Source: Planctomycetota bacterium (lineage in GTDB: Bacteria; Planctomycetota; Phycisphaerae; SM23-33). From it: 40,105 nucleotides of DNA. The stretch lies in the NCBI GenBank assembly GCA_034189755.1, contig JAXIHJ010000082.1, forward strand, positions 1 to 40,105, read 5' to 3'. Positions 2-40,105 of the stretch are shown piece after piece. The translations under genes and the position numbers were made by a program. Within the stretch, counting starts at the first letter, position 1; each line of letters starts with the position of its first letter. Below the pieces are notes generated by a model. That model made no database searches. It was not told where the DNA came from and saw only the letters and a list, made by a program, of their open reading frames with translations.

Positions 2-247
2 CGGAACGCTTTTGCAGGCAACGGGTTAGCGAACCACTGCTCAAAAACCCCAATGTTTGAAAAATTTCAAAAAGGCGGTTTTTGGAACCCCAAAAATAGC
101 TAAGTGTTTTGTGCTGTGCGGTTTACGCAAAAAACGGTTTGGGCGCAATTGGGCGCAACTGGGCGCAACTGGGCGCAATTGGGCGCAATTGGGCGCAACT
201 GGGCGCAATTGGGCGCAATTGGGCGCAATCGGGTGGAATTGGGCGCG
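2..247 (+). repeat. Dispersed ~246-bp element, copy 1 (AT-rich leader plus decamer array); may be truncated by the window start
   Basis: Aligns to the reverse complement of 39436-39671; leader 2-140 is gapless at 102/139 identity by hand count, followed by the same array and the same terminal signature. Confidence 0.95.
141..247 (+). repeat. Tandem array of 10-bp units GGGCGCAAYY (9 units, then degenerate GGGTGGAATT and partial GGGCGCG)
   Basis: Read directly at 141-230 with exact 10-bp period; degenerate unit at 231-240. Confidence 0.98.
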
Positions 248-278: not shown

Positions 279-917
279 CTAATCGTTTTCCGCCAACATG
301 CTGCGGAGCAGGGCGGCGAACTGGCGGACGGCCTGGCCGCGATGGCTGACTGCGTTTTTCTTTTCCGGTGCGAGTTGTGCGGTTGTACAGCCAAGTGTGG
401 GCACGAAGAACAGCGGGTCGTATCCGAATCCGTTCTCGCCGCGCGGCGCATGGGCGATTCGCCCTTCGATGGCGCCGGATGTTTCGATGATGACTTGTTT
501 GCCGTCGGCCAGTGCGAGATGGCAGACGAATCTGGCGGTGCGTTTTTCATCCGGCACGCCGGCCAGGTCGGCCAGCAGGCGAGCGTTATTTGCATGGTCG
601 ATTGTTTTTCGATCTGCGTCGGGCTTGCAGTCGTTAGCGGCGTAGCGTGCGCTTCTTACGCCGGGTTCGCCGTTCAAAGCGTCCACCTCCAGGCCGGAAT
701 CATCCGCCAGGCACCATTCGCCCGTGGCGCGGGCGTAGTAGGTGGCCTTGTCGCGGGCGTTTTCGGCGAAGGTTGCGGCGGTCTCGTCCGGGGCGGCGAT
801 GTCGCCGAATGACTCCAGGCCGACCATCTCCACCGGCAGCTCACCCAGCGTATGTATGATCTCACGAAGCTTACCGCGGTTGCGGCTGGCTAGTACGATC
901 GAGCGAATCCGTGTCAT
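279..917 (-). CDS. rdgB: RdgB/HAM1 family non-canonical purine NTP pyrophosphatase
   Basis: Motifs LASRNRGK, TFAENA, ADDSGLEVDAL, PGVRSARYA, GFGYDPLF, SHRG; start set to ATG 917 (MTRIRSIVLAS). Confidence 0.95.
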   Translation of the reverse strand: MTRIRSIVLASRNRGKLREIIHTLGELPVEMVGLESFGDIAAPDETAATFAENARDKATYYARATGEWCLADDSGLEVDALNGEPGVRSARYAANDCKPDADRKTIDHANNARLLADLAGVPDEKRTARFVCHLALADGKQVIIETSGAIEGRIAHAPRGENGFGYDPLFFVPTLGCTTAQLAPEKKNAVSHRGQAVRQFAALLRSMLAEND

Positions 918-1692
918 TCTGCTTTTTCTTTTTGGGTATGTGCACCGGTTCACTTTTGGCGAAGACGCGTTCGGCCTCGCCCTGCTTGTTGATAATCGTT
1001 ACCGTTATCTTTCGGCCGTTGACCGCCAGGAATGGATAACGCCGCTTGACGGCCTCAATTCGCGGGTCATGAATTACAGGCTTAACTCTCGACCCTTCCT
1101 TGACCATCTGAACGGCCGAGTCGGGAAACGACCCGACCGTTACCGTTGACTGCGACGGGCCGTGATTGTAGTACGCCTCTTCGCCCTTGTCCCTAAGCTG
1201 CCTGCAGTACATTACGGCGAATCGTTTTCTGCCGTAATAATCCGCCTTAGGCTCGTCGTAGAACGTGGCGACGACGACGGTATACGCGCCGTCGGCGTTT
1301 TGGAGGTTCCATTCCGGCGGACCGATGTCGGAGCCGGGCAGCGGCACGACTATCGCCTTCTTGAACGGGCCGATCCCCGCCGGCGTGACCCAGTTTTTCG
1401 CCTTTTTCAGATTGCCCCGGCTGGCCTTGTGGCTTCTGTATTTGCCCCAGTACAGCTCGCTCCGCCCGTCGCCGTGGACGATAAACAGGTCTTTCCATTT
1501 CGCCAGTTGTTCCGTGGACTGCTTGTAGTACTTGGCCTGGCTGATGTGGGACGGACCTGAAAAGGTATGCAGCAGTATGGTGTAATCGGACTGGCCTGCC
1601 GGAGGCTTGTTTGCCAGGTTGCAGCCGGCCAGCACCGCCGCAAACGACGCCGCCAGACCGAGCCAACAGTTGCAGGTTCGTAATCGGTTCAT
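871..1692 (-). CDS. Putative lipoprotein, possibly with two SPOR-like segments
   Basis: 273-aa ORF co-oriented between argF and rdgB; signal peptide ending in lipobox LAGC; SPOR resemblance by eye only. Confidence 0.7.
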   Translation of the reverse strand: MNRLRTCNCWLGLAASFAAVLAGCNLANKPPAGQSDYTILLHTFSGPSHISQAKYYKQSTEQLAKWKDLFIVHGDGRSELYWGKYRSHKASRGNLKKAKNWVTPAGIGPFKKAIVVPLPGSDIGPPEWNLQNADGAYTVVVATFYDEPKADYYGRKRFAVMYCRQLRDKGEEAYYNHGPSQSTVTVGSFPDSAVQMVKEGSRVKPVIHDPRIEAVKRRYPFLAVNGRKITVTIINKQGEAERVFAKSEPVHIPKKKKQNDTDSLDRTSQPQPR

Positions 1693-4055: not shown

Positions 4056-4949
4056 TTACGTTTGATGTTCCCAGCCCTCCGGCACCAGTTTTTCATCCGT
4101 ACCGTCAGGCAGAACCAGGACGAGCGACTGCCTTTGTGTTATCGTCCCGACTCGCGTTACCTTGACGGTAAGAGGGTTATACTTGCAGAGCCGCTTAGCC
4201 TGGTCAGCCGGAAGTGTAAACAGCAGTTCGTAATCTTCACCGTCTGCGAATGCGGCTTCTAGCGCCACGTTCGGATGAATCGGCACGTCGGCGGCGATGA
4301 TTTTAGCCCCTGCGCCGGAGGCCTTGCATATATGGTTAAGGTCCTTCGCCAGGCCGTCGGAAATGTCGATCATGGCGTGCAGGTCGTAGTTTTTCGCCAG
4401 CGTGCGGGCCTCGGCGATTCGCGGCGTGAAGTTCAGGTCTCTGCCGGACCGCCAGGCCCCGCCGAGCGAGCCGGTCAGACAAATCGCATCGCCGAGCTTC
4501 GCCCCGCTTCGCAGAACGGGTTCGATGTCGCCGTCTCTGGCGAACACCGTTGCACTGACAGCGAGCGGGCCGGCCCAGGCCGCGACGTCACCGCCGACCA
4601 GAGGACAGCCGAACTCGTCGCCGATGCGGCGCAGACCCTTGTAAATCGCCTCGGCGTCGCTGCGTGTCAAACCCTTCGACAGAGAAACCGAAGCCACCGC
4701 GCCGAACGGCACGGCAGCCATCGCCGCGACGTCCGAGAGGTTGCGTGCCATCGCCTTTCGGCCGGCGGCTTCCGCGCCGTGGGTGGCGAGGTTGAAATGC
4801 ACTCCGTCGAGCACCTGGTCGGTCGTTACCAGCAGCTTATCCGAGCCGCAGAGAACCACGGCACAGTCGTCGCCCGGTCCTACCAGCACAGTCGACGGAT
4901 CGAACCCGCCCTGCCGGCAAACCCAGTCGATGAAATCCGATTCGAGCAT
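4056..4949 (-). CDS. thiL: Thiamine-monophosphate kinase
   Basis: GPGDDCAV, GVHF, NLSDVAAM, GGD, DISDGL and GEDYELLF motifs. Confidence 0.95.
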   Translation of the reverse strand: MLESDFIDWVCRQGGFDPSTVLVGPGDDCAVVLCGSDKLLVTTDQVLDGVHFNLATHGAEAAGRKAMARNLSDVAAMAAVPFGAVASVSLSKGLTRSDAEAIYKGLRRIGDEFGCPLVGGDVAAWAGPLAVSATVFARDGDIEPVLRSGAKLGDAICLTGSLGGAWRSGRDLNFTPRIAEARTLAKNYDLHAMIDISDGLAKDLNHICKASGAGAKIIAADVPIHPNVALEAAFADGEDYELLFTLPADQAKRLCKYNPLTVKVTRVGTITQRQSLVLVLPDGTDEKLVPEGWEHQT

Positions 4950-4951
4950 GG

Positions 4952-6364
4952 CTAAGTGAGTTTTCGCCGCCAGAAGGCCAATTGCTTGCGGAGTTGTTTT
5001 TTGCCGCCGGCGCCGTCTGTGGCGTATCGCTTCACGACGTTTACCGGGCCGAGATGGTTGTAGACGTCCTTGTCGATTTTGCCCGCGGCGGCCCGGAGCG
5101 TCTTCAGCGGCAGCTCGGCGAGTGTTTTGCCTTCGCGCTCGGCCCGGCTAACGAGCTTGGCGATAATCCCATGTGCGGTGCGGAACGGCACGCCCTTGGT
5201 GACGAGGTATTCCGCCAGCGCCGTCGCATCAAGGAAGCCGGCGTCCAGATCGGCTGCGATGCGCTCGGTGTTGAACTTTGTCGTGGCTGCAATCTTCGCC
5301 GCGACCGTCAGTGATTGTTGCATTGCATCGACGGCTGCCAAGGCGAATCGCTTGTCGTCCTGCATGTCGCGGTTGTAAGCCAGCGGCAGGCCCTTCAGCA
5401 GTGTAAGCAGGCCGACCAGTTGTGCAATCGCGCCGGCCGACTTGCCGCGGACAAGTTCCAGCGTGTCGGCGTTTTTCTTCTGCGGCATCATCGAGCTTCC
5501 CGTGCAGTAGGCCTCGTGCAGTTCGAGCATGCCGAACTCAGTCGTCGAGTAGATAATCCAGTCTTCGGCCCAGCGTGACAGGTGCACCGCCAGCATCGCG
5601 CAGTCGAAGCACAGCTCGGCCAGGAAATCCCGGTCGGAGGTTGCGTCGATGCTGTTTCGGCTGAACTTCTCGAAGCCCAAAAGCTCGGCGGTTCGCGTGC
5701 GGTCCAGCGGCAGTGAGCTGCCGGCTACGGCCCCAGCGCCCAGCGGGCAGACGTTGATCCGCCGCCGCGCATCGGCCAGGCGCTCGGCGTCGCGCTGTAG
5801 CATTTCGACGTAGGCCAGCACCGCATGGCCGGCCAGAACGGGCTGGGCGCGCTGAAGGTGCGTGTAGGCCGGAACGATCAGATCGCCATATTTTTCCGCC
5901 AGGCCGGTCAGCGCCCGCTGCAAAGCGGCGATGCCGTCGCGCAGGTTATCGACCGCGTCGCGCGCCCAGAGTCGCAGGTCCAGTGCGACCTGGTCGTTTC
6001 GGCTTCGGCCGGTGTGCAGCTTGGCCCCGGCGGCGCCCACACGGTCGATCAGGGCCTTCTCGATTACCATGTGGATGTCTTCCAGCTCGACGGGCATCTC
6101 CAGCCGGCCGGCCTCGATTGCAGCGGCGACGGCCAGAAGGCCCTTTTTAATTCGGCCGAAATCCGACCGCGTAACAATGCCGACCTCGCTCAGCATCTGC
6201 GCGTGCGCGATCGAGCCGACGATGTCGTACCGCCACAGTGCCTCATCAACGTCGAGGCTGGCGAGAAACTTTGCCGTCGCCTCGTCGGCGTCGGCTTTCA
6301 GGCGACCGTGCCAGGATTTTTTCAACCGTTTCGCCTGCTTCGGTTTCGCTTTTTTACCGGCCAT
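4952..6364 (-). CDS. argH: Argininosuccinate lyase
   Basis: EDIH, LHTGRSRNDQV, YTHLQRAQP, GSSMMPQKKN, YNRDMQ motifs; start ATG 6364 with AAGGAG RBS. Confidence 0.96.
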   Translation of the reverse strand: MAGKKAKPKQAKRLKKSWHGRLKADADEATAKFLASLDVDEALWRYDIVGSIAHAQMLSEVGIVTRSDFGRIKKGLLAVAAAIEAGRLEMPVELEDIHMVIEKALIDRVGAAGAKLHTGRSRNDQVALDLRLWARDAVDNLRDGIAALQRALTGLAEKYGDLIVPAYTHLQRAQPVLAGHAVLAYVEMLQRDAERLADARRRINVCPLGAGAVAGSSLPLDRTRTAELLGFEKFSRNSIDATSDRDFLAELCFDCAMLAVHLSRWAEDWIIYSTTEFGMLELHEAYCTGSSMMPQKKNADTLELVRGKSAGAIAQLVGLLTLLKGLPLAYNRDMQDDKRFALAAVDAMQQSLTVAAKIAATTKFNTERIAADLDAGFLDATALAEYLVTKGVPFRTAHGIIAKLVSRAEREGKTLAELPLKTLRAAAGKIDKDVYNHLGPVNVVKRYATDGAGGKKQLRKQLAFWRRKLT

Positions 6365-6386
6365 GATGAATCTCCTTCGCAGCGCG

Positions 6387-6415
6387 ATGGTAGAGGCCCA
6401 CACCACGTCTGTCAA
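6387..6415 (-). promoter_or_regulatory. Putative sigma70 promoter for argH-thiL-tsaE
   Basis: TTGACA-17 nt-TACCAT on the minus strand, just upstream of the argH RBS. Confidence 0.55.
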
Positions 6416-6464
6416 CGGCGCAACACGTACATTGACGATGGGGTGGTGGTCTACGATGAGTTCG

Positions 6465-6617
6465 ATGCCTTCCGGTTCGACCTCTAAAACACGCGGGACC
6501 TTCGTCGCCGAGATAATCGCCAACGAGCGTCTTTGCGACGAGCATTTTCTCCTACGGCTTCGCGTTGCCGCGACCGGGCGCGGGCCGACTGATTTTCCGC
6601 TTGGCGTACCAAAATAG
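6465..6617 (+). pseudogene. Truncated duplicate of the pyrK 5' end (50-codon ORF)
   Basis: ATG 6465 gives MPSGSTSKTRGTFVAEIIANERLCDEHFLLRLR, matching the PyrK N-terminus at 6985, then runs into unrelated sequence and stops. Confidence 0.8.
6486..6548 (+). repeat. 63-bp perfect direct repeat, copy 1 (imperfect extent 6465-6564)
   Basis: Identical to 7006-7068 at offset 520. Confidence 0.97.
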
Positions 6618-6878
6618 TTGCACAGCCATGATGACTATGCAAACGCCCTTCCACACCAGCAGCCACCACGGCCGCCACCACATACCGGTGTGCACTTCCA
6701 CAAAGTCCGAGCACCCAAAAGCGGCGAAGTTGGCTGTGGCGATATATTTGGTCCGGTGCCGCCCCGGCCACAAGCAGGAGACAAGAAAGCAGGCGGCAAT
6801 GCCGAGCCAGAAAATGCCTTCGACGAGATTTGCGGTCTGCGTGAAGCTGTCTAGCGAAGAGGCAAGCATTGCTACCAT
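6552..6878 (-). CDS. Small multi-pass membrane protein (Trp-rich FGCSDFVEVHTGMWWRPWWLL motif)
   Basis: About 108 aa with three hydrophobic segments; start ATG 6878 or 6869; lies between the two pyrK repeats. Confidence 0.7.
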   Translation of the reverse strand: MVAMLASSLDSFTQTANLVEGIFWLGIAACFLVSCLWPGRHRTKYIATANFAAFGCSDFVEVHTGMWWRPWWLLVWKGVCIVIMAVQLFWYAKRKISRPAPGRGNAKP

Positions 6879-6947
6879 GTTATTGCCAAATACCGAACCA
6901 GCCAAGGACTTCAACAGAAAGACGCATGGAAGCCGTTGCCGATTCCG

Positions 6948-6976
6948 TTGACGGGTGGGCATGCTCGCTCTAGGAT
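6948..6976 (+). promoter_or_regulatory. Putative sigma70 promoter for pyrK, implying a near-leaderless mRNA
   Basis: TTGACG-17 nt-TAGGAT ending 8 nt before ATG 6985; no obvious RBS. Confidence 0.5.
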
Positions 6977-6984
6977 GTTTTTTA

Positions 6985-7944
6985 ATGTCTCCCGGTCGAA
7001 CCTTGAAAACACGCGGGACCTTCGTCGCCGAGATAATCGCCAACGAGCGTCTTTGCGACGAGCATTTTTGCCTGCGGCTTCGCGCGGATGAGTTTCCGCC
7101 GAGCCGGGCGGGCCAGTTTGTTCAATTGCAGTGCTGCCGACCGGCGGAGCAAGGCGGCCTCGGCGAGGTGGACTGGCCTGAAGGTAAGTGGCCTAAACTT
7201 GCACAGCCGGAACTCACCCGTCGCCACCCGCTGCTGCGCAGGCCATTTAGCCTCGCCGGGCGGCGGGACGTTCAGGGCGGCGTAGAGCTGGACGTTATCT
7301 ATCGAACCATCGGAGCGGGCACGGCCCGGCTGGCCGGGCTTCAGCCGGCCGAGCGGCTGAGCGTGCTGGGGCCGCTGGGCAACGGTTTTACCCTCGGCAA
7401 CAACAAGCCCGCCGCCGTTCTGGTCGGCGGCGGCGTGGGGATACCGCCTCTGCTCTACCTGGCCGAGGCGCTCGCGTCGGCCGGCAAGGACGTAACGGCC
7501 TTTGTCGGCTCGCGCAGCGCGAACCTGCTGCCGCTGGAGCTTGTTGCGGACAAGCCGCCTGATGCCAACGGCAAGCCCGCCCTGTGCATACGGCAGTTCA
7601 GCGCCCTGGGCATCGAGGCGGCCGTTGCCACGGACGACGGGACACTGGGGGTCGAGGGTTTCGTCTCCGGCGCCTTGGCGCGATGGCTTGGCCGGAAGAC
7701 GATTTCGCCGGGCAGCCTTGTGGTCTACAGTTGCGGGCCTGAAGCGATGATGGCCGCCGTCGCGGATACCTGCATCGCCGCCGGCATAGAATGCCAACTC
7801 GCACTGGAGCGATACATGGCCTGCGGCATGGGCACATGCCAGTCGTGCGTGGTGAAAATCCGCGATGAAAGCGAACAAGGCTGGAGCTTCAAGCTTTGCT
7901 GCACCGACGGGCCTGTCTTCGACGCGAGGGACGTTCTGTGGTAA
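6985..7944 (+). CDS. pyrK: Dihydroorotate dehydrogenase electron transfer subunit (FAD/2Fe-2S)
   Basis: GQFV, LRRPFS, GPLGNGF, GGGVGIPP, CGPEAM, ERYMACGMGTCQSC and CTDGPVF motifs. Confidence 0.9.
   Translation: MSPGRTLKTRGTFVAEIIANERLCDEHFCLRLRADEFPPSRAGQFVQLQCCRPAEQGGLGEVDWPEGKWPKLAQPELTRRHPLLRRPFSLAGRRDVQGGVELDVIYRTIGAGTARLAGLQPAERLSVLGPLGNGFTLGNNKPAAVLVGGGVGIPPLLYLAEALASAGKDVTAFVGSRSANLLPLELVADKPPDANGKPALCIRQFSALGIEAAVATDDGTLGVEGFVSGALARWLGRKTISPGSLVVYSCGPEAMMAAVADTCIAAGIECQLALERYMACGMGTCQSCVVKIRDESEQGWSFKLCCTDGPVFDARDVLW
7006..7068 (+). repeat. 63-bp perfect direct repeat, copy 2 (imperfect extent 6985-7084)
   Basis: Identical to 6486-6548. Confidence 0.97.
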
Positions 7945-7960
7945 TAACGAACAGTATCGT

Positions 7961-8047
7961 CACAAAGACCACCAAGACCAAAAGAGAAAAATCTTTTTCA
8001 TGATTTTGATATTCTTGGTGATCTTCGTGATCTTTGGGGTCTTTGTG
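7961..8047. repeat. Long imperfect inverted repeat built from ~9-bp CACNAAGAY units, between convergent genes; possible bidirectional terminator
   Basis: CACAAAGACC at 7961 pairs with GGTCTTTGTG ending at 8047; the right arm has four ~9-bp units. Confidence 0.7.
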
Positions 8048-9823
8048 TTACGTCTTCAGGATGTCTATCATCTTTCGATATTCCGCCAGTAGGAAATCCG
8101 TCCCGCGTTTGTCGGTGATGTGCGAGAAGCACAGCGGTTCGTCGGTCGGGATTTGGCGGTGGACGTAGAACGCCGGGTCGATGCCGGTCTGCTCGAGTGC
8201 GGCGGTCCATTTTTCGTAGTCGAAGTGCTCGTCCCACGCGTCCATCCGCGCGCCCAGTCGCCAGGCGGCCTCGATAGTCGCCGCGACGCGGCGGTCGCAG
8301 CGACACAGCAGGGCCTCCAGCAGGCTTCGCTCGATCCGGTGAAATTTGAAGTTCACGGGCGAGCGGCGTGAAAGCTCTCGCAATCGCCGGCGGACGGCGA
8401 AGAAATAATTCGGCTCGCGCATCGCGCACCAATGCATGGGCGTGTGCGGCTTGGGCACGAACCATGATACGCTTGCGTCAATCGCCCCGCGCCGGCCGTC
8501 CACTTCTTTTCGGGTGTTAGACAGTCTCAGGCAGAGCTCGAAGATGGCGTCGATGTCGGCGTCGGTTTCGCCGGGCAGGCCGGCCATGAAGTACACCTTG
8601 ACCTTCTGCCAGCCTGCTTCGTAGGCGGCACGGACGCCGGCGAGCATGTCCTGTTCGGTGATGTTCTTTCGTATAGCCCGCCGCAGCCGCTCGCTGCCCG
8701 CCTCGGCTGCGATGGTCAGCCCGCCCTTGCGAACCGTACTGGTGAGCTTGGGCAGTATGCGAAGCTGGCTGTCGGCGCGAAGCGACGGCAGCGAGATCGA
8801 GACGTGCCGGCCGGCAAATTCGGCGTTTAGACGCTCGATGAGTTCGTCCAGGTGCGGATAATCGCTTGTCGAAAGGCTCAGCAGCGATATCTCCTCGTAT
8901 CCGGTCGCCGCGACGGCTGACCGTGCTGCATTCAGGATTTCGTCCACCGTTCGGCGGCGTACCGGCAGGCGCGTATGACCGGCCTGGCAGAACCGGCAAC
9001 CGTGGGGGCAGCCTCGCATGATTTCTATGGTTACGCGCTCGTGGACGGCCTCTGAAAGCGGTACGAGCGGGCTGGCAACAACCGGCGAATCGGACATGCT
9101 CGGCAGGTGGGCGCGTTGAATTTGACGAGGCACGTCGTTTCGCAATCGCTGCATGGCCGCGAGCTTGCCGTCGCTGTGATACTGCGGCTCGTAGAAACGC
9201 GGCGCGTATGTAGCGGGTATGGTGCGTGCGGCTTCGAGTACGATTTCCTCGCGCGCGGCGTGTTGGCGTTTCATTCGCCCTACAAGCTCCGCCAGCGCAG
9301 CCAGCGGCCGCTCACCGTCACCGACGAGGAACAGGTCGATAAACGGCGCCATAGGTTCTGGGCTGTCGGCCCACGCGTCGCCGGCGATTACCAGCGGGTC
9401 CTGCTCGGTTCGCCCGGCTGCGTGCAGAGGCACGCCGGCCAAATCCAGCATCGTCAGCACGTTCGTGGCGCACATCTCGTAGGCCAGCGAGAAGCCCACA
9501 ACGTCGAAGTCGCGCACGCGGCAGCGGCTTTCCCAGCCGAACAGGTCCAGGCTGCGGCTTCGCATTACCGCCTCGGCGTCGGGAAACGGGCAATACGTCC
9601 GGTCGCATGCTACGTGCGGCATGTCGTTCAGCATGTGATATAAAAGCTGGCTTCCGAGGTGGCTGATGCCGATGTTGTAGGCGTCGGGAAAGGCCAATAC
9701 GACGCTTACTTCAGCCGATTGCACGTCGCCGCAGCGGGCGTTGGTCTCCAGGCCGATGTATTGCCCAGGCCGGCTGACCCGCGGCAAAAGTTCACTGCTG
9801 ATTGTCCGGCCGATGTTCTCCAT
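8048..9823 (-). CDS. TIGR03960-type B12-binding radical SAM protein
   Basis: VSRPGQYIGLE start, FPDAYNIGISHLG, EIMRGCPHGCRFCQAG (CX3CX2C), SLPSLR, FVPKPHTP, GARMDAWDEHF. Confidence 0.9.
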   Translation of the reverse strand: MENIGRTISSELLPRVSRPGQYIGLETNARCGDVQSAEVSVVLAFPDAYNIGISHLGSQLLYHMLNDMPHVACDRTYCPFPDAEAVMRSRSLDLFGWESRCRVRDFDVVGFSLAYEMCATNVLTMLDLAGVPLHAAGRTEQDPLVIAGDAWADSPEPMAPFIDLFLVGDGERPLAALAELVGRMKRQHAAREEIVLEAARTIPATYAPRFYEPQYHSDGKLAAMQRLRNDVPRQIQRAHLPSMSDSPVVASPLVPLSEAVHERVTIEIMRGCPHGCRFCQAGHTRLPVRRRTVDEILNAARSAVAATGYEEISLLSLSTSDYPHLDELIERLNAEFAGRHVSISLPSLRADSQLRILPKLTSTVRKGGLTIAAEAGSERLRRAIRKNITEQDMLAGVRAAYEAGWQKVKVYFMAGLPGETDADIDAIFELCLRLSNTRKEVDGRRGAIDASVSWFVPKPHTPMHWCAMREPNYFFAVRRRLRELSRRSPVNFKFHRIERSLLEALLCRCDRRVAATIEAAWRLGARMDAWDEHFDYEKWTAALEQTGIDPAFYVHRQIPTDEPLCFSHITDKRGTDFLLAEYRKMIDILKT

Positions 9824-35784: not shown

Positions 35785-38700
35785 ATGAAACTCAGGAAGC
35801 TCATTCTGCACGGGTTCAAAAGTTTTGCCGATCGGACAACGTTTGATTTTGACGAAGGAGTAAGTTGCGTTGTCGGGCCAAACGGCTGTGGCAAGAGTAA
35901 CATTGTCGATGCCGTCAAATGGGTGCTCGGTACCCAGTCGGCCAAGAGTCTTCGCGGTTCGGAGATGATGGATGTAGTTTTCAACGGCTCAGCCGGCCGG
36001 CGGGCTGCAAGCATGGCGGAGGTTACGCTGGTCTTCGACAACGGCACCGGCGTGCTCCAGCCCAATGTCAAGGAGGATTCAGCCAACGGCGCTGACGGCC
36101 TCGTTTCCGTCTCTCGGCAGCTGTTCCGGTCCGGGCAGAGCAAATATCTCATCAACAAAACCCCGTGCCGTCTGAAGGACGTCCGCGAGATGTTCATGGA
36201 CACGGGCATCGGCATAGATGCCTACAGCCTTATCGAGCAGGGGCGCGTCGAGATGTTCCTTCAGGCCTCGCAGGACGAACGACGCGCGATATTCGATGAA
36301 GCCGCCGGAATCAGCAAGTACAAGGCCCGCAAAGCGGAGGCTATCCGAAAGCTTCAGCGCGTCGAGCAGAACCTGCTGCGGCTGAACGATATCCTGGCTG
36401 AAGTTGAGAAACAGCTTCGCTCGGTCAAATATCAAGCCGGCAAGGCGCGAAACTATCAGACCTATACCGAAAGGCTCAAAGACCTGCGGTCGTTGTATTT
36501 CCTCGCCCAGTACCACAGTTTGAACCAACAGCGCACCGAGTTGCAGCGGCAGCTTGATGCCGACACCGATGCGCTTTCGGCGGTCAGTGCACGCATCGAT
36601 CAGCTCGAAGCGGCCCGCAGCGCAACGGAGGTCGAGTCGGTTGACTTAGAGCAGGCCGCCCGCGGGTTACAGGGGCGACTTGCCGCGGTAAGCGGGCAGA
36701 TTGCCACCTGCCGGGATCGGACCGAAATGCTCTCGGCCCGAGTCAAGGAACTCGGCGAGCAGATCGTAACCGCCGCATCGCGCTGCGAGGAGGTCGAGGC
36801 CAAGCTCGAAGCCGCCGACGCCGACATCACCCGGCGCCGCGCCGAGGCCGATCGTGTCGAAGCCGCCTCCGCCGAACTTACCGGCCAACTCGAAGCCGTC
36901 CATGCCGAACACACCTCCGGCGAAAAGGCCGTCGTTCATTTGCAGGCCAGGCTGGCTGACGAAAAGGCCGGCACTATCGACCTGTTTCGCCGCACCGCAC
37001 AGCTTCACAACGAGATACACACGTTCGGCGTCCGCCGGGAAACGCTGCACGGTCAGGAGGCGCGCCTCACCAGCCGGGCCGAGGAAATAACCGAAACCCA
37101 CAACGCCGCCGCAGCCGAGCGGGCCGGCGTACAAGCAAAGCTGGACGACGTGGCGAAAATCCTGGCCGAAACCCAGGCCAAGCTGGATCAGACCCAGCAG
37201 GCCGGGCAACGTGTCTTCGATGAACAACAGCAGTTTCAACGCCAACTTGCCGAGTCGCGCGAGGCCCGAAGCGCCCTTGCCAGTCGCATGGACGCGATCC
37301 GCGAGATGCAGGCCCGTATGGAAGGCATAGCCGCCGGTGCCCGACGCGTGGTCGAGGCCCGCCGCGACGGCCGGTGCCAGGCCATACGCGGAATGCTGTG
37401 CGAGTTCCTCTCAAGCGACCTCGAGCACGCACCGGTGGTCGAAGCTGCCTTGGCGGGGGCCGACCAGCAACTTCTGGCGATGAAGCTGGATGAGTTGACA
37501 GCATCGGCCGACGAACTCAACGAGGTCGTCGGCGAAGGCGGCTCGGTCGAGGTAATCTGCCTGGACCGCGTTCCGGCCCACCGCAGCGAGTTGGACATTT
37601 CAGCCTGCCCGCAGGCGGTATCGCGGGCGATCGACCTGGTGCGGTTCGAGCCGTGGCTGGAGCCTGTGATGCAGCGGCTGCTCGGCCGAACGCTGGTGGT
37701 CCGCACACTGGCCGACGCCGTCGAAGCCGCCGCCCAAAAGTCCGATACGCGGTTCGTAACGCTCAATGGCGAGGTGCTCGAAGCCGACGGGCGGGTTCGC
37801 ATCGGCGCCGCCAATCGCGCCGCCGGAATCATCACGCGGCGCAGCGAGTTGGCCGAACTCCAAACCGACCACCGGAAGCTCGACGAACAGATCGATCACC
37901 TTGCTCAGCAGTGCGACACCGCGTGCAACGAGCACGAGCATCTGGAACAGATCGGCAAGAAACTGCGAACGGCTATCTACGAGGCGAACACCGAGCGGGT
38001 CGAGTGTAAAAGCCGGCTGGCCCAACTCGACGGGCAGATTGAAAAACTCCAGCGCGAGCAGCCGCTTATCGCCGACGACCTGAAGCACGTCGCCGAGCAG
38101 ATCGTCGCCGCCGTCCGCGATACCCGCCAGGCCGAGGAAAAGGCCGGCGAACTGGAAAAACTCAACCGGCAGCGTGAGCAGGAAATCGTCCGCTTCGAAG
38201 AGCAGATCGCCGCAGCCCAAACCCGGCAGCGGGAACTGGCGGCGAAGCTGACCGAATTGAAGGTTGCACTGGCCCAGTCGGAGGAAAAGAAGCAGGCGAT
38301 TCGCGAGGCCCTCTCGGCCCTGGCCCGGCAGCGAGATGCGATGCAGGCCGACCTGTCGTCGGACCGTTCACAGATCGACCTGAACCGTCAGCGCCGCGAC
38401 GACGCCAAGGCCGCCATAACCGCCGCAGGCGAAGAAACCGACCGCCTCTGCGCCGAGCAGACAAAGCTCAACGTCGAGGCCGAGGAAACCGACCAGACCC
38501 GCCACGGCTTGCGGGAAAAACTCGAGCAGATTCGCCAGGAGCTTACCAGTCAGCGGCGGACGCAGGAAGAGGCCTCCGAAAAAGTCAACACCGCACGCGT
38601 CGAACTGTCCGAAGCGGACGTCCGTATCGAGAACCTCATCGCGCGGGCGTCCGACGAGATGAACATGGCCCTGCTTCAGCGCTACGCCGACTACAGCCAC

Positions 38701-39405
38701 GACGAGGCCCGTGACTGGGACGCCGTAGAGGCCGAAATCACGGAGCTGCGCGGCAAGATCGAGCGTCTTGGCAACGTCAACCTCGACGCCATCGCCGAAC
38801 AGGACGAGTTGCAGCAGCGGCGGGAGTTTCTATCGGGCCAGCTCGACGACGTCAACGCCTCGCGCAAGCAGCTCGATGAGCTGATCCGCCGTATCAACAC
38901 CGAAAGCCGCCAGCGATTCACCGAAATGTTCGAGAAGGTTCGCGCCAACTTCCAGGATCTGTTCCGCAAACTTTTCGGCGGAGGCCGGGCCGACATCGTG
39001 CTGCTGGACGACGAAGACGTGCTCGAAAGCGGCATCGAAATAGTAGCCCGCCCGCCCGGCAAGGAGCTTCGCAGCCTCTCGCTTCTGTCCGGCGGCGAAA
39101 AAACAATGACCGCGCTGGCACTGCTGTTCAGCATCTTCAAGTCCAAGCCAAGCCCGTTCTGCCTCCTGGACGAGGTCGACGCCGCGCTCGACGAAGCCAA
39201 CACCGAGCGGTTCGCCAACCTCTTGCAGCAGTTCGTCCACTCCAGCCAGTTCATCATCATCTCGCACGCCAAGCGGACCATGGGCATGTCCAACGTGCTC
39301 TACGGCGTGACGATGCAGGAACCGGGCGTCTCAAAGCGGATATCCGTCCGTTTCGAAGACGTCGGCCACCGGCTCAAGCAGCAGCTTGAACCGGTTGAGG
39401 CGTAA
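35785..39405 (+). CDS. smc: Chromosome segregation protein SMC
   Basis: GFKSFAD, Walker A GPNGCGKSN, coiled coils with central hinge, LSGGEK, Walker B LDEVDAALD; 1206 aa. Confidence 0.97.
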   Translation: MKLRKLILHGFKSFADRTTFDFDEGVSCVVGPNGCGKSNIVDAVKWVLGTQSAKSLRGSEMMDVVFNGSAGRRAASMAEVTLVFDNGTGVLQPNVKEDSANGADGLVSVSRQLFRSGQSKYLINKTPCRLKDVREMFMDTGIGIDAYSLIEQGRVEMFLQASQDERRAIFDEAAGISKYKARKAEAIRKLQRVEQNLLRLNDILAEVEKQLRSVKYQAGKARNYQTYTERLKDLRSLYFLAQYHSLNQQRTELQRQLDADTDALSAVSARIDQLEAARSATEVESVDLEQAARGLQGRLAAVSGQIATCRDRTEMLSARVKELGEQIVTAASRCEEVEAKLEAADADITRRRAEADRVEAASAELTGQLEAVHAEHTSGEKAVVHLQARLADEKAGTIDLFRRTAQLHNEIHTFGVRRETLHGQEARLTSRAEEITETHNAAAAERAGVQAKLDDVAKILAETQAKLDQTQQAGQRVFDEQQQFQRQLAESREARSALASRMDAIREMQARMEGIAAGARRVVEARRDGRCQAIRGMLCEFLSSDLEHAPVVEAALAGADQQLLAMKLDELTASADELNEVVGEGGSVEVICLDRVPAHRSELDISACPQAVSRAIDLVRFEPWLEPVMQRLLGRTLVVRTLADAVEAAAQKSDTRFVTLNGEVLEADGRVRIGAANRAAGIITRRSELAELQTDHRKLDEQIDHLAQQCDTACNEHEHLEQIGKKLRTAIYEANTERVECKSRLAQLDGQIEKLQREQPLIADDLKHVAEQIVAAVRDTRQAEEKAGELEKLNRQREQEIVRFEEQIAAAQTRQRELAAKLTELKVALAQSEEKKQAIREALSALARQRDAMQADLSSDRSQIDLNRQRRDDAKAAITAAGEETDRLCAEQTKLNVEAEETDQTRHGLREKLEQIRQELTSQRRTQEEASEKVNTARVELSEADVRIENLIARASDEMNMALLQRYADYSHDEARDWDAVEAEITELRGKIERLGNVNLDAIAEQDELQQRREFLSGQLDDVNASRKQLDELIRRINTESRQRFTEMFEKVRANFQDLFRKLFGGGRADIVLLDDEDVLESGIEIVARPPGKELRSLSLLSGGEKTMTALALLFSIFKSKPSPFCLLDEVDAALDEANTERFANLLQQFVHSSQFIIISHAKRTMGMSNVLYGVTMQEPGVSKRISVRFEDVGHRLKQQLEPVEA

Positions 39406-39435
39406 AGCCCCGCACCTCCGGCGAAACGCACCTTT

Positions 39436-39532
39436 CGCGCCCAATTCCACCCGATTGCGCCCAATTGCGCCCAGTTGCGCCCAATTGCGCCCAGTTGCGC
39501 CCAATTGCGCCCGATTGCGCCCAATTGCGCCC
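39436..39532 (-). repeat. Tandem array of 10-bp units GGGCGCAAYY (8 units, then degenerate unit and partial)
   Basis: Plus strand reads (RRTTGCGCCC)x8 at 39453-39532, preceded by CGCGCCC-AATTCCACCC. Confidence 0.98.
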
Positions 39533-39671
39533 AAAGTGTTTTTTGCGTAAGTCGCGAGTAAACAAACACTTAGCTGTTTTAGACCCCCATAAATGAGCGG
39601 TTTTGAAATTTTTAAAACATTGGGGTTTTTGAGTGTTGGTTCAGTAACCTATTGCCTGTTAAGACGTTCCG
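39436..39671 (-). repeat. Dispersed element, copy 2 (inverted relative to copy 1)
   Basis: Reverse complement aligns to 2-247 with one fewer array unit. Confidence 0.95.
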
Positions 39672-39710
39672 GGTTCCGGTCTTCACTTGTCAAATAGCGT
39701 TTAACAGATA

Positions 39711-40105
39711 CCGCTCGCTTAGGCGCCCCGCCTACCTACCGGAGGTGGGCAGGTCGCGGCTAGTAGGCGCATAGGACGCCCCCGTCTTCTATCAGATGAC
39801 GTTATTTGCGCGCGCAAACGGCGTCGCAAAACTTCTGTTGACGTTGTAAGTCCCGGCTGGCCAAGGAGAATTTTTTTTTATTTTCCGGGGGTGCTTTCGG
39901 TGTGAGTTTGCAAATCCGTGCGCGCAAAACAGTCCACGAATTACACGAATTGCACGAATGTAGAAGAAAAAGAAGAAACAATCCACGAGTTACGGATTAC
40001 TCCTGCCTACCCGGCTAGCGACAGCTAGGCAGGCAGGGATTACGGATTACGGTTTCAACAAGCCGCGAACGACGCGAACAAAAACTGACCGCTGATCGCT
40101 GACTG
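39711..40105. repeat. Non-coding cluster of short repeats: REP-like motif, two CCTRCC...GGCAGG hairpins, 9-mer and 7-mer tandem runs
   Basis: 39711-39765 REP-like; hairpins at 39731-39753 and 40002-40037; CACGAATTN run 39933-39959; GGATTAC run 39987-40056; CTGANNG run 40085-40105. Confidence 0.7.

Follow-up and report, generated by a model that had tools for sequence, protein, structure and literature searches.

A dispersed composite repeat of a Phycisphaerae genome shares its core with the leader of a phage-derived portal operon

Correia elements of Neisseria (CREE/NEMIS) are non-coding modules of about 100-160 bp, bounded by inverted repeats and present in many dispersed intergenic copies. 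They often lie directly upstream of genes, so that the hairpin-forming element becomes part of the promoter or of the 5' leader. The pac sites of phages of the SPP1, P22 and Sf6 types are cis sites with phased or bent boxes, located in or next to the gene of the small terminase, which has a helix-turn-helix at its N-terminus and long helices for oligomerisation. We know of no gene transfer agent with a multi-copy non-coding element that shares the leader of its operon. Tandem arrays of 7-bp units in the intergenic DNA of heterocystous cyanobacteria, called STRR, were reportedly described by Mazel et al. in 1990. In the REPIN-RAYT system a multi-copy hairpin doublet is inherited vertically together with a single-copy gene that it flanks, according to excerpts of the two reports (Bertels and Rainey 2011, PMC3116915; bioRxiv 10.1101/2021.07.10.451892). 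Excerpts of two further papers describe the loci of RcGTA-type gene transfer agents as dispersed and co-regulated (PMC6854486, PMC11150451).

The window, that is, the whole stretch of 40,105 nucleotides that was analysed, is contig C137 of genome G000 (2.10 Mb in 155 contigs, 94.6% complete), referred to below as the own genome. The original prediction was that a leader followed by a decamer array is present in it twice, in inverted orientation. Indeed, positions 2-247 align within the window to the reverse complement of 39436-39671 with 80% identity (E 3.9e-59), and a motif scan recovered the nine units GGGCGCAAYY of copy A and the eight units of copy B, both closed by the common end GGGTGGAATT-GGGCGCG. 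A tandem-repeat scan of the array of copy A (TRF) gave a period of 10 with 10.8 copies. The G+C content of the leaders is 43% in copy A and 38% in copy B, compared to 60% in the genome. Both copies are abutted by the stop codons of converging genes, those of Ham1 and SMC. An open reading frame on the minus strand between the two copies (871-1692) belongs to no Pfam family. Scans of copy B found no promoter-like site and one terminator-like site, which is within expectation. The features are listed in Table 1.

Table 1. Modules of the two copies in the window, their flanking genes, and the portal locus on another contig of the same genome. Coordinates are those of the window unless a contig is named.
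Feature	Position	Strand	Remarks
Copy A, 'leader' segment	1..140	+	5' side truncated by the contig start, inside a CGGAACN heptamer array
Copy A, decamer array	141..247	+	9 x GGGCGCAAYY (141-230), GGGTGGAATT (231-240), GGGCGCG (241-247)
Copy A, short terminal segment	248..263	+	Minority end type: copy on C59, first four bases also on C57
Ham1/RdgB-type gene, flanking, outside the element	279..953	-	Converges on the array end of copy A; PF01725, E 5e-62
SMC gene, flanking, outside the element	35785..39405	+	Converges on the array end of copy B; SMC_N, SMC_hinge
Copy B, terminal segment after GGGCGCG	39420..39435	-	Commonest end type, 11 of the 21 assembled ends listed
Copy B, decamer array	39436..39532	-	8 x GGGCGCAAYY and GGGTGGAATT (39532-39443), GGGCGCG (39442-39436)
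Copy B, AT-rich 'leader'	39533..39664	-	Two conserved blocks flanking hypervariable 12-13 nt
Copy B, TTGACAA box, then short CGGAACN heptamer array	39665..39698	-	Unit number differs among copies
Nested REP-like hairpin module	39725..39755	-	In some copies only; related hairpins beside Y1 transposase genes
Copy B, 161-nt core	39778..39938	-	Two complementary GCGCGC-centred boxes; model R1 130.7 bits, E 1.9e-33
9-mer tandem array, ATTCGTGYA on the element strand	39935..39959	-	Period 9, 2.8 copies; motif widespread in relatives
Copy B, 5' mosaic of heptamer arrays and hairpin module	39960..40105	-	Truncated by the contig end; left boundary copy-dependent
Portal locus, contig C102 of G000	4072-7380		purB divergent from a diverged core (78.9 bits), core directly before the portal-like gene

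What was flagged corresponds to the 3' modules of a non-coding composite repeat of 0.65-0.75 kb, in two of its copies. In an all-against-all comparison of 13 copies with long flanks, similarity begins approximately 600 bp upstream of the array. Copy B spans from 39420 to the contig end and thus continues at least to 40105; therefore the leader of 139 bp, initially drawn as the boundary of the element, is an internal segment, and only the 3' third of the element had been in view. The composite unit measures 615-775 bp in the ten core-bearing copies that are not cut by contig ends. Its right end is sharp, one short terminal segment being prevalent, and its left end is copy-dependent and preceded by copy-specific short tandem arrays.

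The expectation of a genome-wide non-coding family was borne out. The first 250 bases of the window match 24 places in the own genome, distributed over 23 loci and 22 contigs. A scan with the decamer motif yielded 23 array stretches, corresponding to 22 arrays, since a variant unit divides one of them. The stretches contain 2-13 units, exactly ten in 11 of the 23 cases, and GGGTGGAATT is the closing unit of 18 of the 22 arrays. Ten of the 23 stretches are situated less than 200 bp from a contig end, and contig C63 begins at the same element position as copy A. It is because of these repeats that the assembly is fragmented into 155 contigs. A public contig from the independent sequencing run X1 spans 38600-39459 without a difference; thus the junction of SMC and the array is bridged and is not an assembly artefact of this metagenome-assembled genome alone. 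The summed depth in run X1 is 17.6 in the unique flank, 85-566 over most of the element (11 in one bin) and 1404-2986 in the bins of the array, as expected for a multi-copy repeat. In short, the copies are far more numerous than two, they have homologues in relatives, as described below, and the one junction that could be checked is supported.

In the direction from 5' to 3', the composite starts with heptamer arrays and hairpin modules, a 9-mer array, the conserved core and a small GC hairpin. These are followed by a nested REP-like hairpin in some copies, a TTGACAA box, a CGGAACN heptamer array of variable length, the leader and the decamer array. The unit number of the CGGAACN and CCGTAAT tandem heptamers varies among the copies, as in STRR-like arrays, and in both cases the intergenic heptamers are mixed with hairpins. 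However, unlike in STRR, the arrays here have a fixed order inside the 0.7-kb unit and adjoin an array with a 10-bp period and a conserved core. The decamer units are arranged head to tail with a period of 10 and no spacers and do not form a CRISPR, in agreement with the original prediction. The broader claim that the element fits no definition of an IS, MITE, REP or CRISPR stands with respect to CRISPR; it is not supported as worded, since the full element contains nested REP-like hairpins and a module bounded by inverted repeats.

No conserved open reading frame was found among the copies. A period of 10 bp leaves all six frames of the array open, and reading frames through the leader and the array were rejected as genes, since they are interrupted by stop codons in several copies. 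Long frames through the arrays of a related genus, g16, overlap frames on the opposite strand with a higher third-position G+C and hence were taken as spurious. Coding on the reverse strand of the core, with a synonymous run Leu-Leu-Leu, was also considered, but the loop of the hairpin explains the changes better. Sigma-54-like and sigma-70-like readings of the core, made by eye, were inconsistent among copies and were dropped.

Several parts of the composite deserve separate mention. Just before the array, the leaders carry between two conserved blocks a hypervariable stretch of 12-13 nt whose length is nearly fixed (e.g. window 39546-39562); the leaders of genus g16 likewise have a hypervariable stretch between two conserved blocks. 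Short arrays of the 9-mer ATTCGTGYA are widespread in related genera, with many loci in G004, G011, G012, G015, G022 and G041. They often form inverted pairs approximately 40-100 bp apart near contig ends, and this motif may be a separate repeat family of its own. Some copies contain nested REP-like hairpin modules (window 39725-39755 and about 40002-40038), and similar hairpins flank Y1 transposase genes on two other contigs of the own genome (C146:1-1000 and C111:9000-9560).

The ends of the 161-nt core are closed by two mutually complementary boxes. According to the original prediction, a copy has neither a terminal inverted repeat nor a target duplication. The second statement holds, as no target-site duplication was seen by eye in the flanks of the 13 listed copies, and the first must be amended, as the core itself is bounded by inverted repeats. 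The composite unit of 0.7 kb has no matching (inverted-repeat) ends, and its left boundary is not fixed.

The length of the core is 158-165 nt in 15 sequences from nine genera. In an alignment of 17 sequences, 76.9% of the cells in the 30 pairs of the box1:box2 helix are paired, compared to 67.6% in shuffled controls (0 of 500 shuffles reach 76.9%) and 29-46% in slid controls. Both sides have changed in 19 of the 30 pairs. Judged from this alignment, the complementarity of the boxes is maintained by compensatory changes. The helix is closed in most single-sequence folds, and the two strands fold alike. In genus g16 the minimum free energy z-scores range from -4 to -9, and the cores of the own genome fold no better than shuffled sequences (z from -0.6 to +1.5).

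One possibility is that the copies are genes of a multi-copy structured non-coding RNA, in which the core would fold via the box1:box2 helix and the decamer tail would serve as an RNA sponge or scaffold. The compensatory changes, the constant length of the core and the low z-scores in genus g16 agree with it. So do the variants of the 9-bp GCGCGC stem in the own copies, since all three variant types create G-U and not A-C on the element strand. However, an inverted repeat in DNA yields the same pairing counts, both strands fold equally well, and the z-scores of the own copies are near zero. Moreover, the inner hairpin favours the opposite strand, which makes the strand signal contradictory. 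Searches of Rfam 15 with gathering and relaxed thresholds produced only sub-threshold matches at chance level (ncS16, 20.3 of 48 bits; MIR7486, 37.9 of 67 bits). We consider this RNA improbable.

A covariance model of the core, R1, was used to search 92 genomes of the same Phycisphaerae family (62 genera), up to 32 candidates per genome being scored. It matched in 26 genomes from 19 genera, with about 500 hits among the candidates scored. Among the candidates scored, 15 of these 26 genomes have at least ten matches, and the own genome has 16. A scan of metagenomes with the core pattern gave three hits, all of them unrelated by eye. As a short dispersed non-coding module that is bounded by inverted repeats and often lies directly upstream of genes, the core resembles Correia elements. 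It differs from them in that no TA target duplication is seen, in that it has a long tail of periodic arrays, and in that it holds a fixed place, across genera, before two particular genes, one small and one of the portal type.

The small gene was found in the own genome on contig C32, where an open reading frame of 149 codons separates the core from the final part of the leader and its array. Since this copy retains a gene between the core and the leader with the array, the other copies are gene-less paralogues of the non-coding flanks of this cassette. Homologues of the small protein, of approximately 100-150 aa, are encoded in 21 of the 92 family genomes, with one or two in each, and represent 17 of the 62 genera; the own genome contains no paralogue. 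Only 20 matches were found in a large protein collection, all annotated as hypothetical and one labelled Phycisphaerae. There are no significant matches in Pfam, NCBIfam, PHROGs, PDB or BFVD (fold searches at E <= 0.001).

The AlphaFold model of the small protein (pLDDT 78) consists of three short N-terminal helices and two long helices. A structure search of the ESM Atlas listed helix-turn-helix clusters. The nearest clusters are unnamed and 89-100% viral (scores 0.94-0.95); we treat this viral-type affinity as a lead only. A wide fold search (VIA) returned generic helical hairpins only: the best Z, 5.9, belongs to unrelated helical hairpins, and the small terminase of NV1 is 23rd (Z 4.9, rmsd 3.3 over 50 residues). 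The pattern of helices suggests that the protein may bind DNA.

Of 18 small-gene loci, 12 have the core upstream of the gene; these represent at least eight genera. It is present in 18 of the 21 genomes with the small gene and in 8 of the 71 genomes without it. The corresponding Fisher p-value, 2.5e-10, takes no account of kinship, and part of the association is trivial, as one core copy adjoins the small gene. Two of the eight core-bearing genomes without the small gene have approximately 20 copies each and are 88% and 77% complete. As far as the excerpts of the REPIN-RAYT reports go, the similarity includes two inverted arms forming one hairpin, a large number of copies and a co-occurring single-copy gene flanked by them. 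However, the product of the gene flanked here, about 100-150 aa long, shows a helix-turn-helix pattern and no match to PF01797, and is not a Y1 HUH transposase. Besides, compared with these excerpts, the spacer is larger and conserved, and periodic arrays are attached.

A large gene of the portal type has its start codon 8-9 nt downstream of the end of the core in five genomes, each from a different genus (contigs C102 of G000, C348 of G094, C210 of G071, C20 of G052 and C102 of G014). At all four core-portal loci that were read, this gene is divergent from purB. In G052 its product matches PF05133 (E 1.2e-15) and the portal PHROG (2.8e-20), and downstream of it there are a scaffold-like gene, which scores below the Pfam cut-off, and an SU10-type major capsid gene (E 3.1e-80). 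The portal-like protein of the own genome is 58% identical to that of G052; it matches the portal PHROG with 1.5e-8 and scores 25.0 bits on PF05133, the cut-off being 25.5. Three genes follow it (600, 187 and 348 aa), which have no match in Pfam or PHROG; the 348-aa product does not resemble the G052 capsid of the SU10 type.

Of the 92 family genomes, 46 contain portal-like genes, mostly one each, with 57-68% identity in most full-length matches. Comparison of the core and portal lists places them in 23 of the 26 core-bearing genomes. The gene order murD-purB-portal is common to G000 and G053, and no core was found in the fetched flanks of the G053 portal gene. A large terminase of the own genome is represented by a gene truncated by the start of contig C119 (138-608; Terminase_6C, 30.2 bits). 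The fragment is the C-terminal nuclease domain; the N-terminal half and the neighbours are unassembled. Four other terminase models have no match in the own genome. The fetched flanks of the three large-terminase loci examined in genus g16 contain no core. Across the family, Terminase_6N occurs sporadically, in 15 of the 92 genomes, and has no connection with the conserved operon. With a chromosomally fixed, phage-derived head operon and parts at several loci, the system resembles RcGTA-type agents as portrayed in the excerpts cited above.

The order of core, heptamers and an array with a 10-bp period was observed in five of the six genera examined (g1, g16, g56, g43, g64). Downstream of the cores of g16, g56, g43 and g64, as in the own genus, there are first a hairpin, a TTGACAA-like box and heptamer arrays. 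After these come a short conserved block with a TTAYG-like motif at its end and, finally, the array. In G019 (genus g20) the first modules are seen and there is no clear decamer array. The units are genus-specific, e.g. GGCCCGAATT or GTTCCCAATC, TTCCGAAACT, TTGCGAATCG, CGGCAGAAAA. Across these genera, the flagged 3' module is kept as an architecture and not as a sequence.

In most genus-specific units an A/T-rich tetramer is adjacent to a G/C-rich hexamer. In these units the A/T tracts are thereby placed one helical turn apart. Such spacing of A/T tracts is the rule for intrinsically curved or protein-wrapped DNA. Thus the arrays could provide phased curvature or wrapping.

A scan of a genome collection with the decamer pattern produced ten loci, seven of which are short arrays in other phyla, namely arrays of 3-5 units GGGCGCAAYY in the intergenic DNA of seven genomes. 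They are taken as independent origins, and no cross-phylum claim is made. At three loci (L046, L050 and L053, from Chloroflexia, Lyngbya and Limnoraphis) a palindrome follows directly on the 3' side of a short GGGCGCAAYY array, and the same octamer makes up its left arm, which suggests tandem duplication of a single hairpin arm as a way for these arrays to lengthen.

The arrays in other phyla show that such sequences arise easily, and one could think of the whole element as neutral, STRR-like slippage DNA, in which arrays and hairpins accumulate between genes and spread by recombination without any function. The unit number, which ranges from 2 to 13, and the left part of the element, which is a variable mosaic, are in line with this. 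However, the order of the modules and the 10-bp period are kept in five of six genera despite changes of the unit sequence, and the same decamer closes most of the arrays of the own genome. Further, a gene-less element (cores of 137-141 bits each) has been kept beside the same gene in G093 and G094, and the coding DNA flanking it is only 79% identical. We regard neutrality as very improbable.

The genes near the copies provide little guidance. Based on crude gene calls of our own, the array end faces a converging gene in 9 of 22 copies and a co-directional gene in 13, that is, there is no bias. The co-directional genes beside the array end of ten copies belong to ordinary cellular Pfam families in nine cases (RNase HII, DprA, CTP synthase, MetRS and PheRS beta are among the families seen beside arrays) and to none in one; none of them is phage-like, and thus no coherent regulon is visible.

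Some own copies at different loci are 98-99% identical (those on C63 and C18 compared to copy A). Hence recent copying or gene conversion is needed, and a reading of the copies as static sites itself offers no explanation for that. A counterpart of the copy on C18 was seen on contig C43 of G041, where it adjoins a homologous gene; we take G041 to be the same genome as G096, as the contig numbers and coordinates match. The leader on C43 is 95% identical to the own copy on C134 over 218 nt, with two differences in the leader of about 112 nt. The remainder of the contig has no DNA match in G000, and the housekeeping genes of the two genomes are only 71-73% identical, which points to mis-binning or transfer of C43. 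We therefore set this leader aside as evidence of selection, since the contig may have been mis-binned or transferred. In the region 5464-8363 of the same contig, katG and a short gene with LTDEQ repeats adjoin a leader and an array of the own-genus type.

The near-identity of copies at unrelated loci is one argument for a mobile, non-autonomous element akin to MITEs, Correia elements or REPINs, which would be copied in trans, e.g. by one of the four Y1 transposases (Y1_Tnp, PF01797) of the own genome, and could be either selfish or secondarily useful. The frequent position of arrays at contig ends, the lack of an orientation preference, the inverted repeats bounding the core and the absence of the element from the 3' flank of SMC in G041 can be explained in the same way. 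Other REP-like hairpins flank the Y1 genes, and one of their modules is also present in the 5' mosaic of the element. However, no core adjoins any of the four Y1 genes, no gene of the IS110 type was found in the search for a parent transposase (which covered the Y1 and IS110 types), and, as stated originally, no recombinase is adjacent to the copies in the window. Like a MITE, the element is short and non-coding (core of 161 nt, composite of 615-775 bp). Complementary boxes close the core, and the composite as a whole has no matching ends. Unlike a MITE with a parent IS, it has one gene-bearing copy only, and the protein encoded there has no transposase domain; nor was a duplication seen by eye in the flanks. 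The retention of copies beside the same gene across species and the fixed place of the core before the portal and small genes across genera also argue against mobility, and we think such an element rather unlikely.

The description of a 0.7-kb composite in approximately 20 copies, which are gene-less paralogues of the small-gene cassette and share their core with the leader of the portal operon, is well supported. As to function, we tentatively favour, at slightly less than an even chance, vertically kept cis-acting sites of a phage-derived system; in broader terms, the copies are probably control or docking sites of such a system rather than ordinary jumping DNA. The core would then act as a shared promoter or operator, or as a hairpin of the 5' leader. 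The decamer array could be a phased-bend platform for protein binding or for wrapping of the DNA, and its unit number would change by replication slippage. The small helix-turn-helix protein is the best candidate for a protein binding to the array. Of the original suggestion of cis-acting sites or an element acted on in trans, the trans-acting partner is plausible; the boundaries given there were wrong.

A more specific version of the cis-acting sites can be imagined. The composites may be about twenty dispersed, pac-like sites of entry into, or docking on, the host genome of a domesticated phage particle, each made up of a core and a phased-bend decamer platform and bound by the small helix-turn-helix protein. 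Packaging of chromosomal DNA, or another DNA transaction linked to the particle, would start at these sites in a defined direction. This fits with the observation that the element flanks the small gene as pac flanks terS, that the core abuts the portal gene, that the element co-occurs with both genes and that the genome contains a fragment of a large terminase. As with pac and the small terminase, there is a cis site beside the gene of a small protein, an N-terminal helix-turn-helix pattern followed by long helices, and phased repeats. However, the sites are about twenty, among ordinary cellular genes, rather than one, and the small protein has no match to small terminases above noise in either sequence or fold. 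In our opinion, this version is improbable.

Titles and abstract openings of the literature on planctomycete and Phycisphaerae repeats, MITEs and gene transfer agents report no such element. The original prediction spoke of an undescribed system. This is too strong in one respect, as the element resembles known dispersed intergenic repeats (Correia, REPIN, STRR); new is the tie of a dispersed repeat to a phage-derived operon and a small phage-like gene. Most dispersed intergenic repeats of bacteria are unexplained, and this family offers a testable case, with a candidate trans-acting protein, a front module shared with the leader of a particle operon, and an architecture that outlasts changes of its units. 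The portal operon is conserved in about half of the Phycisphaerae family. If the element is mobile, it would represent a long-lived repeat population similar to REPINs, with a partner other than a Y1 transposase. If the pac-like version is true, the gene-transfer-agent-like system would be sequence-directed. If the sites direct the packaging or the timing of the particle, then, to our knowledge, there would be no earlier example of a gene-transfer-agent-like system that has chromosomal cis sites dedicated to it.
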